From: Gemmatimonadota bacterium | GTDB lineage: Bacteria; Latescibacterota; UBA2968; UBA8231 | Direction of reading: 5' to 3' | DNA: 64,000 nt | Assembly: GCA_038153405.1 (NCBI GenBank) | Contig: JAYOYH010000004.1 | Span: 1 to 64,000 of the forward strand | In this document: positions 49,888 through 56,097 of the stretch, in pieces | Layout of the letters: each line of letters opens with the position of its first letter | Numbering within the stretch: the first letter of the stretch is position 1 | The notes under the pieces: generated by a model | Seen by the model: the letters and a program-made list of their open reading frames with translations, nothing else | What the model was told of the DNA's origin: nothing | Database searches by the model: none | Translations under genes and position numbers: made by a program

Positions 49888-51867
49888 ATGGAAAACGACA
49901 ACGAAACATCCGACCAATCTCCAGATGGCGCCACACCCGATTTGTCGGCCGACGACGATGGGCAGCTGCGCTTTTCCGAGGCCAAGTATAGGGCCCTCAT
50001 AGAAGGGGCCTCCGACTTTATCTACGTGCTCGACAAGGAAGGGCGCTTTATTTTTGCCAACCGCGAAGTAGAGCATCTGCTCGGCTATAGCCCGGAGGAA
50101 ATGCTGGGCAAGCATTTTTCCGAGGTCATGCACCCCGACGACGTCGAATCGCTCGGTCCCTCGTTTGCCGAGCGCCGCACCGGCCAGCGGGCCACCAATC
50201 GATTGGAAGTGCGACTGGCGTCGCGCAGCGGCAAGGTGCGCAACGTCGAAATGGATATTCGCCACCTTGCCCTCAGTTCCAGCGGGCTGTACCAAGACGA
50301 CCATTTTATCGGCACGCACGGCGTCGTGCGCGACGTAACGGCGCGCAAGTACAGCGAGACCAAGCGCCATGCGCTCAATCAATTGGATCGCGCCATCTGG
50401 AGCATGGCGCGGGCCGACGACATCCATATCGTTCTCGAAGGCATACGCAGCGCGCTGCAAACGGTAGACCTACCCTATGCCGAACTCGGCGTCTCCGTAA
50501 TCGATATGAACGAACCGCCGACGGTGCAGTTTTACAGCACCTATAAGAGCGAGTGCATTGAGCGCAAAGCGCAGTGGATGGTCGGCGATACCCAGAGCCT
50601 CGCCGAGACGATCATCGATACATGGCAGCGCGGCAGCGCGGTCCATACCTCCTCGCTTAGCGAGGCCAGCTCCGAGCAAAACCCGCTGGCACTAGGCGAG
50701 CTGTACGGGCCAATAGAGTCGATTATCGACGTCCCCTTTTCACACGGGGTGCTCACCATTACCACCAGCGATACGCCCTTCTCAACGCGCGATCTCGACT
50801 TTATCGACGAGCTGTCGAACGTGCTATCCGACGGCTTTCGCCGCGTCGAAGACCTAATCGACCTGACGCTTTCCGAGCAGCGCTATCGCCGCATCGTCGA
50901 AACGCCTAATCTGCTGATCCTCCTATCGGACACGGCGGGCAACTTCCTCTATGTCAGTCCGCAAATCAACCCCTGGCTCGGCTACGCTCCGCAGGATTTT
51001 TACGACGATCCCACCCATTTTTTAAATATCGTCCACGCCGACGACAGAGAGGCGGCAACGCATCTGCTGACGTCGCACGTACCCAGCGACAGCGTAGAGT
51101 ATCGCTGGCTCAATCGCGACGGAGACTACCGATGGGCGAGCGCTTCGTCCTTTCCCATCTTCGAAACGGACGGCGATGCGCAAATCAACCGACCGAGCTT
51201 GATACAGATCGTGGTGCAGGACGTCGACGATCGCAAGCGAGCCGAGGATACCATCAGAGCGTCCCTGGCCGAAAAGGAAGTACTGCTCAAAGAAATTCAC
51301 CACCGAGTCAAAAACAACCTACAGATCATTTCTAGCCTGCTCGACCTGCAGAGCCGTCGTCTGCCGAGCGAATTGCGCAACGTCTTCGAAGACAGTCAGC
51401 ACCGCATTAATTCGATGGCCCTGATACACGAAGAGCTCTATAACTCGGGCGATCTGGCGCGCATCGACTTCTTAACCTATGCCCACAGCCTGACCAACAA
51501 TCTGATGAGGACCTATAGCCCCGTCGGTGTCTCGTTAGAAATACGCGTTAATGCCCAGCCGCTGACGCTAGAGAGGGCCATCCCCATGGGACTGATCATG
51601 AATGAATTGGTCTCCAACGCCCTCAAATACGCCTTTCCGGAGAATCGCCCGGGGCGCATAAACATCGAGCTGACGAGCCATAGCATTGACGATTTCGTTT
51701 TCACGGTGAGAGACGATGGGGTGGGTATGAAAGAAGATGTCGACCAAAAGACCACGAACAGCCTGGGCCTGAAATTGGTCCATACGTTGGCCATGCAGCT
51801 GCAGGGGCGGGTCGAAGTGGACCGCGAGGGCGGCACCGCGTTTTCCATTATCCGCGGCCCCTCCTAA
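49888..51867 (+). CDS. PAS-(GAF)-PAS HisKA_2-type sensor histidine kinase (soluble)
   Basis: LLGYSPEEM.G PAS, HADD..YRW PAS, H-box KEIHHRVKNNLQ, NELVSNA.KYAF, DDGVG, LGL.LV. Confidence 0.92.
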   Translation: MENDNETSDQSPDGATPDLSADDDGQLRFSEAKYRALIEGASDFIYVLDKEGRFIFANREVEHLLGYSPEEMLGKHFSEVMHPDDVESLGPSFAERRTGQRATNRLEVRLASRSGKVRNVEMDIRHLALSSSGLYQDDHFIGTHGVVRDVTARKYSETKRHALNQLDRAIWSMARADDIHIVLEGIRSALQTVDLPYAELGVSVIDMNEPPTVQFYSTYKSECIERKAQWMVGDTQSLAETIIDTWQRGSAVHTSSLSEASSEQNPLALGELYGPIESIIDVPFSHGVLTITTSDTPFSTRDLDFIDELSNVLSDGFRRVEDLIDLTLSEQRYRRIVETPNLLILLSDTAGNFLYVSPQINPWLGYAPQDFYDDPTHFLNIVHADDREAATHLLTSHVPSDSVEYRWLNRDGDYRWASASSFPIFETDGDAQINRPSLIQIVVQDVDDRKRAEDTIRASLAEKEVLLKEIHHRVKNNLQIISSLLDLQSRRLPSELRNVFEDSQHRINSMALIHEELYNSGDLARIDFLTYAHSLTNNLMRTYSPVGVSLEIRVNAQPLTLERAIPMGLIMNELVSNALKYAFPENRPGRINIELTSHSIDDFVFTVRDDGVGMKEDVDQKTTNSLGLKLVHTLAMQLQGRVEVDREGGTAFSIIRGPS

Positions 51868-51910: not shown

Positions 51911-52195
51911 CTATGCGGCGTGCCGGTCTCCTTTCGATTTGCGCAGCAGTTCCAACTCAATCATCCAGCGGGTTTCGTACTGGCGCAGCGCGCGATGCCA
52001 GGCGCGTAGATCGGCCTCGCCGCGCAGCAGTTGGCGAGCGACTTGGTCGATAGTCCGTTCGGCCTGACGAATCGAAGGCCGGGCAGCAAAGGCTCGCATC
52101 GAGTGGGATCCAAAGGCAAGCCGCACCCGATTGATCACGGCGCAGATATCCGAGCTAAGGCGCGCTATCGACGGGCGGTTGGTGCGAATGTTCAT
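51911..52195 (-). CDS. Hypothetical 94-aa basic protein
   Basis: AGGAGA RBS 7 nt before ATG, own promoter, amphipathic helical composition, ends in -HAA. Confidence 0.7.
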   Translation of the reverse strand: MNIRTNRPSIARLSSDICAVINRVRLAFGSHSMRAFAARPSIRQAERTIDQVARQLLRGEADLRAWHRALRQYETRWMIELELLRKSKGDRHAA

Positions 52196-52256
52196 GCGAC
52201 AATCTCCTGGGGAAACGCCGGTTGGGGGCAACCGGAGTGGACGCTGCAGGAAAAAG

Positions 52257-52307
52257 CTATACTTATGTGCACTATAAAAATAAACTGCACTTATGTGCAG
52301 CTGTCAA
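52257..52307 (-). promoter_or_regulatory. Promoter with two repressor (LexA-like) boxes
   Basis: TTGACA at 52307-52302. CTGCAC-TTAT-GTGCAG (52285-52300) fills the spacer; a second copy CTATAC-TTAT-GTGCAC lies at 52257-52272. Confidence 0.7.
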
Positions 52308-52389
52308 GCACTTTTTCTCCCTTGACGCACCGCGCCGATTTCCTATCCTACAGGGTCTTTTACCTGAACGTAATTTCACACGAGGCACC

Positions 52390-53289
52390 ATGAGCGCGAT
52401 AGAAGAGCGAGCCATCGGCAAGACCGGTATGACACCCAAGGCGCTGGGCATTGGCTGCGCGTGGTTCGGCAGCGACAAGAGCTCGGACGCCGACACTATC
52501 GCCGGCGTGCGCCGGGCCATTGACCTGGGCCTGAACTACATCGATACCTCGGCCGGCTACGGCGAGAGCGAACGCCGCGTCGGGCTGGCGCTGGCCGGCG
52601 GCTATCGCGACAAAATTTACCTACAGACCAAAGCCGGCACGCACCCCGAGCACCGCGGCGACTACCGCGCTAAAACCATTCGCTGGAGCGTGGAAAACAG
52701 CCTGCGCCTGCTGGGCACAGACTATTTGGACTCGGTCCTCATACACGACCCGTCCGACATAGAGGTACCCTTGGCACCGGGCCATGCGCTCGACGAGTTG
52801 CTCGAGATGAAAGAGGAAGGCCTTATCGGCCACGTTGGACTCGGCGTGCGCCAGCACGAATTTCACCGCCGCGCTATTGAGACCGGGCTGATTGAAATCG
52901 TCCTGTCTTTTTTAGACTACACGCTGCTCGACCAGTCGGTCGCCCGCACTACGCTGCCGCTGGCGCGAGAGCGCGGCGTGGGTATCATTTTGGCTAGCGT
53001 CTTTGCCATGGGCACGCTGACCGGCGTCGAGCCCGATGCGGAGACGGAGCGTCGCCGCAACCCAAACGGCGAACCGCGGGCCCACCAGATGTGGTCCTGG
53101 TGTCGACAGCGCGGAGTTAATATACGCCATCTAGCTATGCAGTTTTGCCTGGCTGCACCCATCGACGGCATCGTCATGGCCGGTCCCTGCAATGCGGCCG
53201 AAGTCGACGATGCCTTTGACGCGGCAACGGCCGACGTCCCCGAAGAGATCTGGACTGAGTTCAAAAGGGAATTTGGCGTGGGGGTCTGA
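52390..53289 (+). CDS. Aldo/keto reductase
   Basis: RAIGKTG, DTSAGYGESE, TK, SLRLLGTDYLD..LIHD. Confidence 0.92.
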   Translation: MSAIEERAIGKTGMTPKALGIGCAWFGSDKSSDADTIAGVRRAIDLGLNYIDTSAGYGESERRVGLALAGGYRDKIYLQTKAGTHPEHRGDYRAKTIRWSVENSLRLLGTDYLDSVLIHDPSDIEVPLAPGHALDELLEMKEEGLIGHVGLGVRQHEFHRRAIETGLIEIVLSFLDYTLLDQSVARTTLPLARERGVGIILASVFAMGTLTGVEPDAETERRRNPNGEPRAHQMWSWCRQRGVNIRHLAMQFCLAAPIDGIVMAGPCNAAEVDDAFDAATADVPEEIWTEFKREFGVGV

Positions 53290-53879
53290 TGGAGTGGAGC
53301 GGCCTACTGCTCGACCTTGCGCCGCTGGCCGTCTTCGCCATCCTCGACAGTGCGGGCAACGTGCGCTATGCCTTGATCGGCGCCGCCCTAGCCGCAGTGC
53401 TCGAGCTGGCCTACAGCCACTTCTTTCTCGGCGGCATCGACGCCTTCTCGCTCTTGTTTTTTGCCCTGATTATCGCCTTTGCCGCGCTGGCCTACTACTT
53501 CAAAAACCCACTATTCTTCAAGCTCAAACCCGCCGCCATCGGCTGCTGCACCGCGCTTATTATGCTCCTGACGTCTGCCATTGGCCGCCCCGCCATGCTG
53601 GAAATGACCGAACACTACGCCGCCGCAATGCCCGCATCGCTGCAAGCGCAGTTGGCACAGGACGGCGTGCGCGCCATGCTCGCGCGCGCCAATTTACACC
53701 TAGGCATCGGGCTTTTAGTCTACGCCGCCGCCTGTGCATGGGCGGCGCTGCGCCTGAGCCGCTGGTGGTGGTTGGCCATCAGCGGGCCCGGACTCTACTT
53801 AGTCGCCTTGATCAGTGCTGTGCTGGCCATGCCCGCGCTCTACAGCGGGTTCATCAGAACATTGTTCCAGCGGTTTTAA
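53289..53879 (+). CDS. IspZ/YciB-like inner-membrane protein
   Basis: DLAPL.VF, F.NPLFFKLKP, about 5-6 TM segments. Confidence 0.7.
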   Translation: MEWSGLLLDLAPLAVFAILDSAGNVRYALIGAALAAVLELAYSHFFLGGIDAFSLLFFALIIAFAALAYYFKNPLFFKLKPAAIGCCTALIMLLTSAIGRPAMLEMTEHYAAAMPASLQAQLAQDGVRAMLARANLHLGIGLLVYAAACAWAALRLSRWWWLAISGPGLYLVALISAVLAMPALYSGFIRTLFQRF

Positions 53880-54986
53880 CCGTATATTTCCGTTGAGCGT
53901 GTGCAACCGAATAACGCCATTGGCCTCGGTGCCCAACTGACCGATTAACTGCGTGCGCTTGGCGAGCTCGACCCGGTGCATGGGCAGCATAGAGTCGACC
54001 GATCCATTGGTCGTACGCGCGTCGATTCGGGCCGGATACGCATCGGGCAAGTGCACCTCGAGCTGTCCATTGGTCGAACTGACCGTTAGGGCCGCATCGC
54101 CGGCGGCAATATGCGCATGTATATTGCCGTTTTGCGTGCTGAATAACCCCTCCTCATGCAGCGCGTCTATGCGCGCTATAATATTGCCGTTTTGCGTGCG
54201 CAAATGCGCCGCACCGCGCACCCCGTCCACCCTAAGATTGCCGTTGGTGGTCTGTGCGCGCACCGCGGCTTGGCTACCGCGCGCCTCGACCTGACCATTT
54301 ACCGCACACAACTCCAGATCGATACCAGCCGGTCCTTCTATGGTGTAGCTCACTTCTACGCTGTGCCCTTTGGGCAGCGGCATATGCTGCTTGTCGATGC
54401 GCACCACATCGCCGTCGCGCAGCACGTCGACCTGCACCTGGCCGATCAGGGCGACGGCTTCGGCGCGACTGTGCGCCTTCACCTTTTTATGCACCGTTAC
54501 CGTTATCCCATCTTGCGGCCCTGCGGTAAAGCGCACGTCGCCGCTGTCGGTGGCTGCGTGGATGGCCAACAGCGCCTTACTGTCCAACGTCCACTCGCAG
54601 TCCTCTACCGCCTCTTCGCGGCCAATAGATGCGTGTTCGACGACTTCATCGATGACGTCGCGCACCTGATCAACTACCTTGTCGACCATCCGCCCCATGT
54701 CCATTCGCTGCACGCGATGCACGGCCTCGTCTATTTCGCGCCGCACGACATGGCCCATTTCGCCCCCTTGCACCGCCGCCACTGCCCGGCGCACCTCTTG
54801 ACCAATCTCACCTAGTATTTCGCCGAAATCCCCAGCGCGGACCGATCGACCGCGCCGCGTCGCATGCCCGCTCTCGCCCTGCGGCGCCTCGTCGTCGCCC
54901 AGTGCTTTGAGCAGCGTCTCGGCCTCTTCTACGCTGATCTTTCCCTCGGCCAGCATCCGCAGAATGGTGACTTTCTCTTCGCTCAT
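53799..54986 (-). CDS. SHOCT-like plus DUF4097 beta-repeat protein (YvlB/LiaX-like)
   Basis: EEK..IL.MLAEGKISVEEA..LL.AL N-terminus; repeated T.NG.I motifs. Confidence 0.82.
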   Translation of the reverse strand: MSEEKVTILRMLAEGKISVEEAETLLKALGDDEAPQGESGHATRRGRSVRAGDFGEILGEIGQEVRRAVAAVQGGEMGHVVRREIDEAVHRVQRMDMGRMVDKVVDQVRDVIDEVVEHASIGREEAVEDCEWTLDSKALLAIHAATDSGDVRFTAGPQDGITVTVHKKVKAHSRAEAVALIGQVQVDVLRDGDVVRIDKQHMPLPKGHSVEVSYTIEGPAGIDLELCAVNGQVEARGSQAAVRAQTTNGNLRVDGVRGAAHLRTQNGNIIARIDALHEEGLFSTQNGNIHAHIAAGDAALTVSSTNGQLEVHLPDAYPARIDARTTNGSVDSMLPMHRVELAKRTQLIGQLGTEANGVIRLHTLNGNIRLKPLEQCSDEPAVERGHGQHSTDQGD

Positions 54987-54998
54987 TGCTGCACCTCG

Positions 54999-55385
54999 CT
55001 ATTTAATTTTGGTCAACTCGCGCGCGGCGCTAGCCGCATCCAATTCGCCGCGGTTCAACTGTTCCAATACCGCCCGGCGCCGACGCACCAAATCGCTTCC
55101 AGCCTCTTCCTCGTCACTGCCAACATCAAAACCCATTTCGCCAATAATGCGGTTCAATCGCTTGCGCAAATCTTGATAGGGCTCACCCAGTTCGCGCTCC
55201 ATTTCCTTTAGATTGCCACGCTTGCGCACAAAAACCTCCAAAAAGCGCAGGCTCTCGGCCGAGAGGCGGTCAAAAGCGCTCAGAGCAAAGCGACCCTGGA
55301 TTACCGTATCGCACTGGCAGCAGCTGAGCTGACTGGCGCAAAGCCCCCCGCCGCAGGCCGGACACGTCGCCAATATACTGTGCAC
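54999..55385 (-). CDS. DUF2089 family protein (Zn ribbon + HTH + SHOCT-like)
   Basis: CPACGG...C..C.T.IQG.F, F...RGNLKEMERELG..Y, VLEQL.RGEL. AAGGAG RBS. Confidence 0.85.
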   Translation of the reverse strand: MHSILATCPACGGGLCASQLSCCQCDTVIQGRFALSAFDRLSAESLRFLEVFVRKRGNLKEMERELGEPYQDLRKRLNRIIGEMGFDVGSDEEEAGSDLVRRRRAVLEQLNRGELDAASAARELTKIK

Positions 55386-55476
55386 AGTTCATCTCCTTTC
55401 GCCATACGCATTGAACTTGACTATTGCAATTATTTATAAGTATACCAAAATATTTAGCGCGTTGGGGGAATTTATT

Positions 55477-55519
55477 TCAAATATTTTTGATTTTCTCAAA
55501 ATATTTTTATTTTCTCAAA
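55477..55519. repeat. AT-rich ~19-bp tandem repeat
   Basis: TCAAATATTTTTGATTTTC / TCAAAATATTTTTATTTTC / TCAAA, plus a partial CCAAAATATTTA at 55445. Confidence 0.6.
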
Positions 55520-55551
55520 AAAAGCGCTCGCACTGCCACGGTGCGAGCGCT
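55517..55551 (-). terminator. Intrinsic terminator after zapA
   Basis: 11-bp stem AGCGCTCGCAC/GTGCGAGCGCT with a 7-nt loop and a T-tract on the minus strand. Confidence 0.8.
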
Positions 55552-55575
55552 GCAAAAGACGGCGTAGACGCGCAC

Positions 55576-55920
55576 TCAGTAACGCGCCGACTCCGCCTTC
55601 CACTCTATCCATTCGCTCGTCATGGGCAGCAGCGCTGAGCGCTGTTCGACCAACGCATTGAGTCGCTTTATTTGTCCGTGCGCCTGCTCTAAGAGCATCT
55701 CGCGCTCTTCGCGTAGCGCTAGCAATTCGGCGGCCAGTTCCATAGCAGCCAGCACAGCGACCTTGCCGCGGCTCACATCTCCGACGCGCGCTTGCACTGC
55801 CCGCATCTGCGCATCGACGCACGCTGCAACGCGTCGCGTGACCTCTGCCTCCAGCGGGCTGGCAATGCAGTATTCCTCATCGCCGATAAGCACGCGCGCC
55901 GTGTTCTGCACCTGTTCCAT
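55576..55920 (-). CDS. zapA: Cell division protein ZapA
   Basis: V.I...EY.I, VA..VD..M, KVAVLAAM.LA.EL, coiled-coil tail. Confidence 0.85.
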   Translation of the reverse strand: MEQVQNTARVLIGDEEYCIASPLEAEVTRRVAACVDAQMRAVQARVGDVSRGKVAVLAAMELAAELLALREEREMLLEQAHGQIKRLNALVEQRSALLPMTSEWIEWKAESARY

Positions 55921-56097
55921 AGTGACCATCCTCTCGCGGTCGCTTCTACCCTCAATCCCTGCCCGTCTACCCTCACCACCCAGTCTACGAAGAAAACGCC
56001 GCACGGTCCGACTCAGTTCCTACCCAGTTCGGCGAGCGCGGGGAATTATCTTATATTGAGTACTCCGCCCGATGTATACCCCTTCCGGAGCGATCCT

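Follow-up and report, generated by a model that had tools for sequence, protein, structure and literature searches.

The locus and its promoter

We analysed a 64,000-nucleotide stretch of DNA (the window) from a member of the phylum Latescibacterota. On its minus strand lies a small gene encoding a protein of 94 residues, preceded by a promoter with two boxes, each a predicted LexA operator. The features, in order of coordinate, were as follows.

51911..52195, minus strand: the 94-aa gene, an ATG open reading frame ending in DRHAA; member of clade A of a new family
51914..51919, minus strand: codons for the terminal Ala-Ala, a predicted ClpX degron (from 28 of 31 clade-A rows and codon usage)
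52204..52208, minus strand: ribosome-binding site AGGAG, 8 nt 5' of the ATG (read from sequence)
52218..52242, minus strand: 5' leader with a GTCC.CT motif and then a GC-rich hairpin, a feature conserved solely in family f1
52258..52271, no strand assigned: box 2, TATAC-TTAT-GTGCA, predicted LexA operator just 3' of the inferred transcription start
52279..52284, minus strand: inferred −10 element TTTATT, weak, with 17-bp spacing as at lexA and in orthologs
52286..52299, no strand assigned: box 1, TGCAC-TTAT-GTGCA, predicted LexA operator, a perfect palindrome filling the −35/−10 spacer
52302..52307, minus strand: −35 element TTGACA (read from sequence)
52390..53289, plus strand: divergent aldo/keto reductase gene (AKR, PF00248), a neighbour outside the element

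Along the minus strand the order is thus TTGACA, two bases, box 1, one base, TTTATT, box 2, the leader, AGGAG and the ATG at 52195. Re-reading of the sequence agreed with an initial annotation of this DNA on the positions of both boxes, 28 bp apart from start to start, and on the TTGACA (52307-52302, minus strand) and the ATG reading frame (52195-51911) ending in DRHAA. The −10 element is mostly TATATT in orthologs, as against TTTATT in the window, and a consensus promoter scanner made no call for the promoter of the 94-aa gene.

The GTCC.CT motif, with a GC hairpin of changing sequence, was present in all 18 aligned leaders from family f1 of the phylum, and a GGAG-type ribosome-binding site was kept across the leaders of that family. 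Their consensus fold comprised four pairs with no two-sided change. Occlusion of the ribosome site by the leader was considered and rejected, as a single leader out of 14 approached the tail of the shuffled distribution (6/100). Elsewhere in the window, a PAS/HisKA_2 kinase gene is convergent with the 94-aa gene (coordinates noted: 49888-51867, plus strand; 53799-56004, minus strand), and DUF4097, DUF2089 and zapA genes lie nearby, with no link to the 94-aa gene seen.

The predicted LexA operator of the lineage and its regulon

The initial annotation had assigned both boxes to the motif TGCNC-N4-GTGCA, which LexA of Fibrobacter succinogenes reportedly binds. This Fibrobacter-type label did not hold: only box 1 fits the pattern exactly and shares its TG..CA ends, whereas the lexA box deviates at one position and box 2 at two. 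The pattern occurs 63 times in the 4.86-Mb genome, and with one mismatch allowed it was found 20 times in the window versus 32.6 expected, which is below chance. The pattern itself is not discriminating; what carries the signal is the exact sequence. Of the four genomic copies of the 11-mer common to boxes 1 and 2, two are here, one is at lexA and one at C2:132131. The box with this 11-mer on contig C2 (C2:132128) precedes a gene for an XRE-type HTH protein and is not coupled to a −35 element in the usual way.

The promoter of lexA (C10:98440) has the same layout as that of the 94-aa gene: TTGACA and TGAAC-TTAT-GTGCA are two bases apart, TAATGT follows after one more base, and a second box lies further downstream. 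Three degenerate boxes precede recA1, the first at the same offset in the spacer as at lexA, and the offset of box 1 is identical at lexA, recA1 and the parE-like promoter; no box was found upstream of recA2. A matrix of lexA and recA1 sites from this genome ranked the window boxes second (box 2) and sixth genome-wide. When we instead used 13 distinct lexA boxes, all from other genomes, and scored 4,855,077 positions, lexA ranked first, box 1 second and box 2 94th, and the recA1 boxes ranked only 485th, 6411th and 13153rd. Among 30 lexA loci of relatives, the spacer box was clean in 28, variant in one and not seen in one. The LexA-type repressor geometry claimed for the promoter was thus borne out, with the same box at the same spacer position at lexA and recA1 and kept in orthologs.

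The genes that we take, from short motifs, to be uvrA, uvrB, uvrC, uvrD, recN, ruvAB, umuDC and radA were unboxed here, with upstream scores of at most 7.9 in the matrix of outside lexA boxes; the best upstream score of uvrA was 7.9 and that of recN 1.0, versus 19.8. Of the suggestion that TGCNC-N4-GTGCA precedes lexA, recA, uvrA and recN, the part concerning lexA and recA therefore stood, in the form of a related lineage box at lexA and recA1, and the part concerning uvrA and recN fell. The lineage box tolerates GTTCA and TATAC halves, with A fixed at position 4. Judging from these sites, its consensus is TG[A/C]AC-N4-GT[G/T]CA, nearer to the Gram-positive box than to the Fibrobacter motif.

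PMC3091678 gives CGAAC-N4-GTTCG for Bacillus subtilis and RGTAC-NNN-DGTWCB for Nostoc. Like Gram-positive and cyanobacterial LexA operators, the lineage box is a 14-bp dyad with an AC-N4-GT core that stands at lexA and recA and overlaps the promoter. Unlike them, it has outer bases TG...CA and A, C or T at position 3, lies almost always 2 nt after TTGACA in the spacer, and serves a very small regulon. LexA motifs vary widely, according to the part of PMC8565304 that concerns them. A cleavable LexA and RecA are both encoded in this genome. The LexA, its single LexA-domain match, is canonical, with the Ala-Gly site, Ser129 and Lys166 invariant in six aligned rows.

When coupling to a promoter was required, 12 sites were left and five scored well above the others, using a matrix built from ortholog promoters that were chosen by a pattern written after those promoters had been viewed. 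These five promoters belong to a parE/parC-like pair (contig C11), lexA, the 94-aa gene, an operon ending in ssb (contig C1) and recA1. The motif does define a regulon in this lineage, as had been proposed, and a small one.

The top-scoring promoter-coupled box precedes the parE/parC-like (type II topoisomerase) pair at C11:109217-111559, an unusual LexA target. The boxed operon at C1:72779-73753 encodes a 45-aa peptide with a hydrophobic C-terminal half, a 59-aa HTH-like reading frame and a second ssb; the peptide has no Pfam match, and a similar one is boxed in genome G036 (L176). The two recA genes lie at C72:11496 and C88:8931, the boxed one following radA and the unboxed one sitting with recX. 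Two recA genes occur in 68 of the 75 f1 genomes and in no other family searched. An association of the second recA with the 94-aa family was rejected, since those 68 genomes have two regardless of the gene, and is also contradicted by families f2 and f4, which carry the gene with one recA. A umuDC-like pair without a box lies at C12:15599-17436, and its UmuC-like protein ends in AA.

Other boxed genes were seen in relatives: sigma-70 paralogues and an ECF-like gene (L172 in G044, L161 and L171 in G098, the ECF-like gene being in G098), an ankyrin gene ahead of a clade-A gene (L166 in G098), a Rieske-domain protein gene, and a nucleotidyltransferase gene that lies ahead of uvrA (L163 and L178 in G036). 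In G036, unlike in this genome, uvrA is thus preceded by a boxed operon that runs into it.

The protein family, its linkage to the box and its Ala-Ala tail

The gene had been described as an orphan with no recognisable family. It is not an orphan but a member of a class-wide family with two clades, for which searches of PDB sequences, Pfam, NCBIfam, PHROGs and the atlas by sequence returned nothing consistent, in line with the second half of that description. A search with the single protein found relatives in 31 of 61 related genomes, and a profile search found the family in 89 of 168 Latescibacterota genomes (f1, 36/75; f2, 31/31; f3, 1/3; f4, 18/22; f9, 2/2) and not in nine other families of the phylum. 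Protein database searches returned 4, 23 and 52 proteins, all short and none annotated by Pfam. Many close genera are without the gene, and 39 of the 75 f1 genomes lack it, so it is dispensable.

Compared with the ortholog in G001, dN was 0.088 and dS 0.643, and dN was below dS in all ten pairs (about 0.14 to 0.2 in most). The gene is under purifying selection at the protein level. Two clade-A copies appear to be broken, one by an in-frame stop (L016 in G019) and one as a 60-aa remnant (L127 in G115). Longer fused forms were sought among 7997 candidates and none was found, which is weak evidence. Scans that need near-exact peptides detected no family member in metagenomes, and none in viral contigs save one 13-residue chance match. 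Among RNA contigs from small shares of three estuary runs of one study, one contig of 239 nt matches 52147-52384 exactly; it spans both promoters and is therefore no sign of transcription.

In 82 of 90 family rows (locus L039 counted twice) a strict promoter-plus-box pattern is found no more than 330 nt upstream of the gene, and this pattern has seven matches in the whole genome. The expected conservation of the box in orthologs was thus confirmed. The eight rows that miss the pattern comprise five with variant boxes, two second genes (behind the boxed ankyrin gene of G098) and one without a box. Only 5 of 21 family loci have the AKR as divergent neighbour; the other 16 are boxed or nearly so. 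Conversely, AKR orthologs without the 94-aa gene were unboxed in 5 of 5 genomes (best upstream scores, 1.1 to 7.9), which argues against ownership of the box by the AKR, the outcome that would have overturned the initial annotation. In G004 the kinase gene abuts the AKR directly, and the 94-aa gene and the boxes are both gone. Together, the unboxed AKR orthologs and the double loss in G004 indicate that the box moves together with the 94-aa gene.

The protein is predicted to be soluble and to fold as a three-helix bundle. The structure model (22 rows) has a mean pLDDT of 88.5, with helices at residues 10-28, 40-57 and 63-92 and loose ends. The protein has a pI of 11.6, a net charge of +10 and an Arg-rich flexible N-terminus, and no membrane segment was detected by hydropathy (best 19-residue value, 0.95; GRAVY, −0.53). 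All 45 rows share W66, L70, Y73, E74 and W77, which fall mostly on one helix stripe; we infer that they form the core and not an active site. Foldseek at E 0.001 gave no match in the PDB or among viral models. The widest fold search reached a best Z of 7.5 against generic helical bundles, a result that shows neither a new fold nor an absence of kin. A joint prediction with FtsZ, RecA1 and LexA gave a score of 0.00 and a mark of 0.32, with four chains being outside the calibration of the tool, and this outcome counts on neither side of the question of binding.

The family tree separates a mostly basic clade A (31 rows, including the 94-aa protein) from an acidic group B (14 rows), with support of 93/91 when three long rows are left out. 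The two clades co-occur, each boxed, in several genera; only clade A was found in this genome. N22, R23, R25 and M33 are invariant in 31/31 clade-A rows, and all but R23 are replaced in clade B. This pattern suggests that these residues may form a clade-specific binding face. Acidic members of clade A exist as well (G017 and G040).

Free terminal AA is recognised by ClpX. The AA ending occurs in 28 of 31 clade-A rows and 2 of 14 clade-B rows, versus 40 of the 3052 long reading frames in the genome (1.3%); the rows are kin and not independent, so these counts overstate the evidence. In the clade-A tails the residues before AA are variable, and each of the four Ala codons and three stops occurs, indicating that selection acts on the peptide end. 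A single origin of the tail was not rejected (p-AU 0.285). The claim that the C-terminal AA is a degron-type tail thus gained from its conservation in clade A. The model has low confidence at residues 1-3 and in the last block, which makes an exposed tail likely. The GYVG and RKH loops are retained in both copies of ClpX. The tmRNA tags end in AA in all three relatives that were read, tmRNA was not found in the assembly of this genome, and cleavage of the local LexA would leave an N-terminal fragment ending in VAA.

In Escherichia coli, ClpXP removes RecN, an SOS protein, through C-terminal signals, as stated in the portion of PMC10714372 on this protein, and SOS products including the LexA N-terminal fragment are cleared by ClpXP in the corresponding parts of PMC10714372 and PMC10055390. 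The 94-aa gene resembles these cases in being LexA-boxed with a C-terminal signal, in an unrelated fold. The RecN of this genome, unlike the E. coli case, is unboxed and does not end in AA.

Possible functions of the 94-aa protein

From these features we propose that LexA would hold the 94-aa gene off through the two operators and that DNA damage would switch it on, a control that is very probable given the operator match. ClpXP would then clear the protein via its Ala-Ala tail, which is likely, limiting it to a pulse, and its effect would end once LexA re-accumulates. The protein would bind the DNA repair or recombination machinery, without catalysis, through a basic patch on the first helix. 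A non-enzymatic binding role has a good likelihood, and, given the rest, a partner in that machinery (RecA-ssDNA, SSB or end processing) has somewhat less than an even chance of being the right one. The reading as a whole, a LexA-controlled, ClpXP-cleared, non-enzymatic modulator of repair or recombination, is the one we rank first, tentatively.

Repair is favoured as the target by the position of clade B before an annealing-like gene, by an AlkZ-like neighbour and by the boxed recA1, ssb operon and topoisomerase. A conserved gene for a protein of 228-270 aa is present in 30 of 168 genomes, and a clade-B gene is directly upstream of it in 28 of the 30 (L128:2202-2885 in G098, and L140-L151). 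In G070, where it stands apart from clade B, it carries its own box. In the atlas it falls closest to clusters of phage proteins (0.95) and Sak annealing proteins (0.90), a lead only; it has no Pfam match, its model is of low confidence (pLDDT 54) with an uninformative fold search, and it was found in none of the 75 f1 genomes. The annealing-protein link is clade B's, a clade that is of opposite charge, mostly without AA and not found in this genome. In clade A, the gene in G005 is directly followed by an AlkZ-like glycosylase gene (PF06224), and apparently the same gene directly follows it in G030 and G159. In the genome studied here the clade-A gene is alone at its locus, and its neighbours are therefore uninformative on its target.

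The initial annotation had favoured an analogue of SulA, a LexA-controlled, rapidly degraded blocker of division or replication. The pair of strong operators, the isolated position of the gene and the conserved tail for degradation would suit a protein that is harmful if it lingers, and no other soluble checkpoint candidate stands among the five boxed promoters. However, no result supported this function, and it is kept as a rival, ranked second and rather unlikely. None of the 45 members matches SulA or another inhibitor in Pfam or NCBIfam at E 0.1, no clamp-binding motif was seen by eye, and the gene is absent from many close genera. The protein also has no membrane helix, unlike the many checkpoint inhibitors that belong to the small membrane proteins (PMC6051672). 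The boxed 45-aa peptide before ssb, with its hydrophobic end, is a candidate membrane-type division inhibitor and a better fit for that slot than the 94-aa protein. With SulA, SidA, YneA and SosA the 94-aa protein shares small size, a LexA-controlled gene and predicted proteolysis; it differs in having no homology to them, no membrane helix and an all-helical model, and the fold lists cannot exclude a family.

Direct coating or compaction of DNA or RNA after damage, with no protein partner, would agree with the strong positive charge of the protein, the invariant N-R-V-R face and the Arg-rich N-terminus, but the acidic members within clade A, the strongly acidic clade B on the same core and the lack of an HTH or other DNA-binding family match make it improbable. 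Small helical LexA partners and anti-sigma domains exist, and boxed sigma-70 paralogues in G044 and G098, with a boxed ECF-like gene in G098, would fit a feedback regulator that tunes SOS output as a LexA co-factor, anti-sigma factor or RNA polymerase modulator. Yet the gene is kept here although the stand-out promoters include no boxed sigma gene, and no family match was found; we consider this role quite improbable. Finally, the box might be read by another regulator or belong to the AKR, or the reading frame might not be a gene. Box 1 does sit 23 bp upstream of the putative −35 of the AKR, and some relatives have extra LexA-domain proteins, whereas the single LexA-domain match in this genome, the distribution of boxes at loci with and without the AKR, and the excess of dS over dN in every pair leave this highly improbable.

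A modulator of repair or recombination would have parallels among known proteins. Lambda Gam lies beside the Bet annealing protein, and clade B offers a similar arrangement, in that its proteins are acidic, helical and ~98 aa long and their genes immediately precede a predicted annealing gene; unlike Gam, it is chromosomal and LexA-boxed with no Pfam, PHROG or fold match, and clade A is basic without such a neighbour. DinI and RecX are RecA-filament modulators (PMC6590174, in the part dealing with them). They are small, non-enzymatic and SOS-linked, and the 94-aa protein may work in a similar way by analogy, not as a family member; it has no sequence match to them, and this genome encodes a separate recX, next to the unboxed recA2.

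Lineage-specific SOS effectors, such as checkpoint proteins and RecA modulators, have arisen many times without homology. To our knowledge, few descriptions exist of SOS regulons beyond the model phyla. Small, proteolysed products under a LexA operator are a kind of system already known; the protein family is new. Our literature search found no paper pairing Latescibacterota with LexA and none joining LexA, Fibrobacter and 'SOS box', in a scope that left out most subscription journals, so that prior print is possible. In an uncultured phylum with a tiny regulon, this 10-kDa family is among the most consistent members and has an on switch and a likely off switch. Its target would add a new class of SOS effector or reveal a repair accessory of phage origin that the host controls. 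The operator motif can serve to map the regulon throughout the phylum, and the protein, being small, soluble and predicted to fold well, is suited to direct testing.

A broader scenario, which we regard as unlikely, is that a piece of a phage recombination module was domesticated as a core SOS gene of the phylum and split into paralogues of opposite charge. The acidic, stable form would be co-expressed with the Sak-like annealing protein, and the basic form timed by ClpXP, the 94-aa gene here, would be a new, unrelated class of damage-pulsed recombination or cell-cycle regulator. In G044, the clade-A and clade-B forms make up two of the four strictest LexA promoters.
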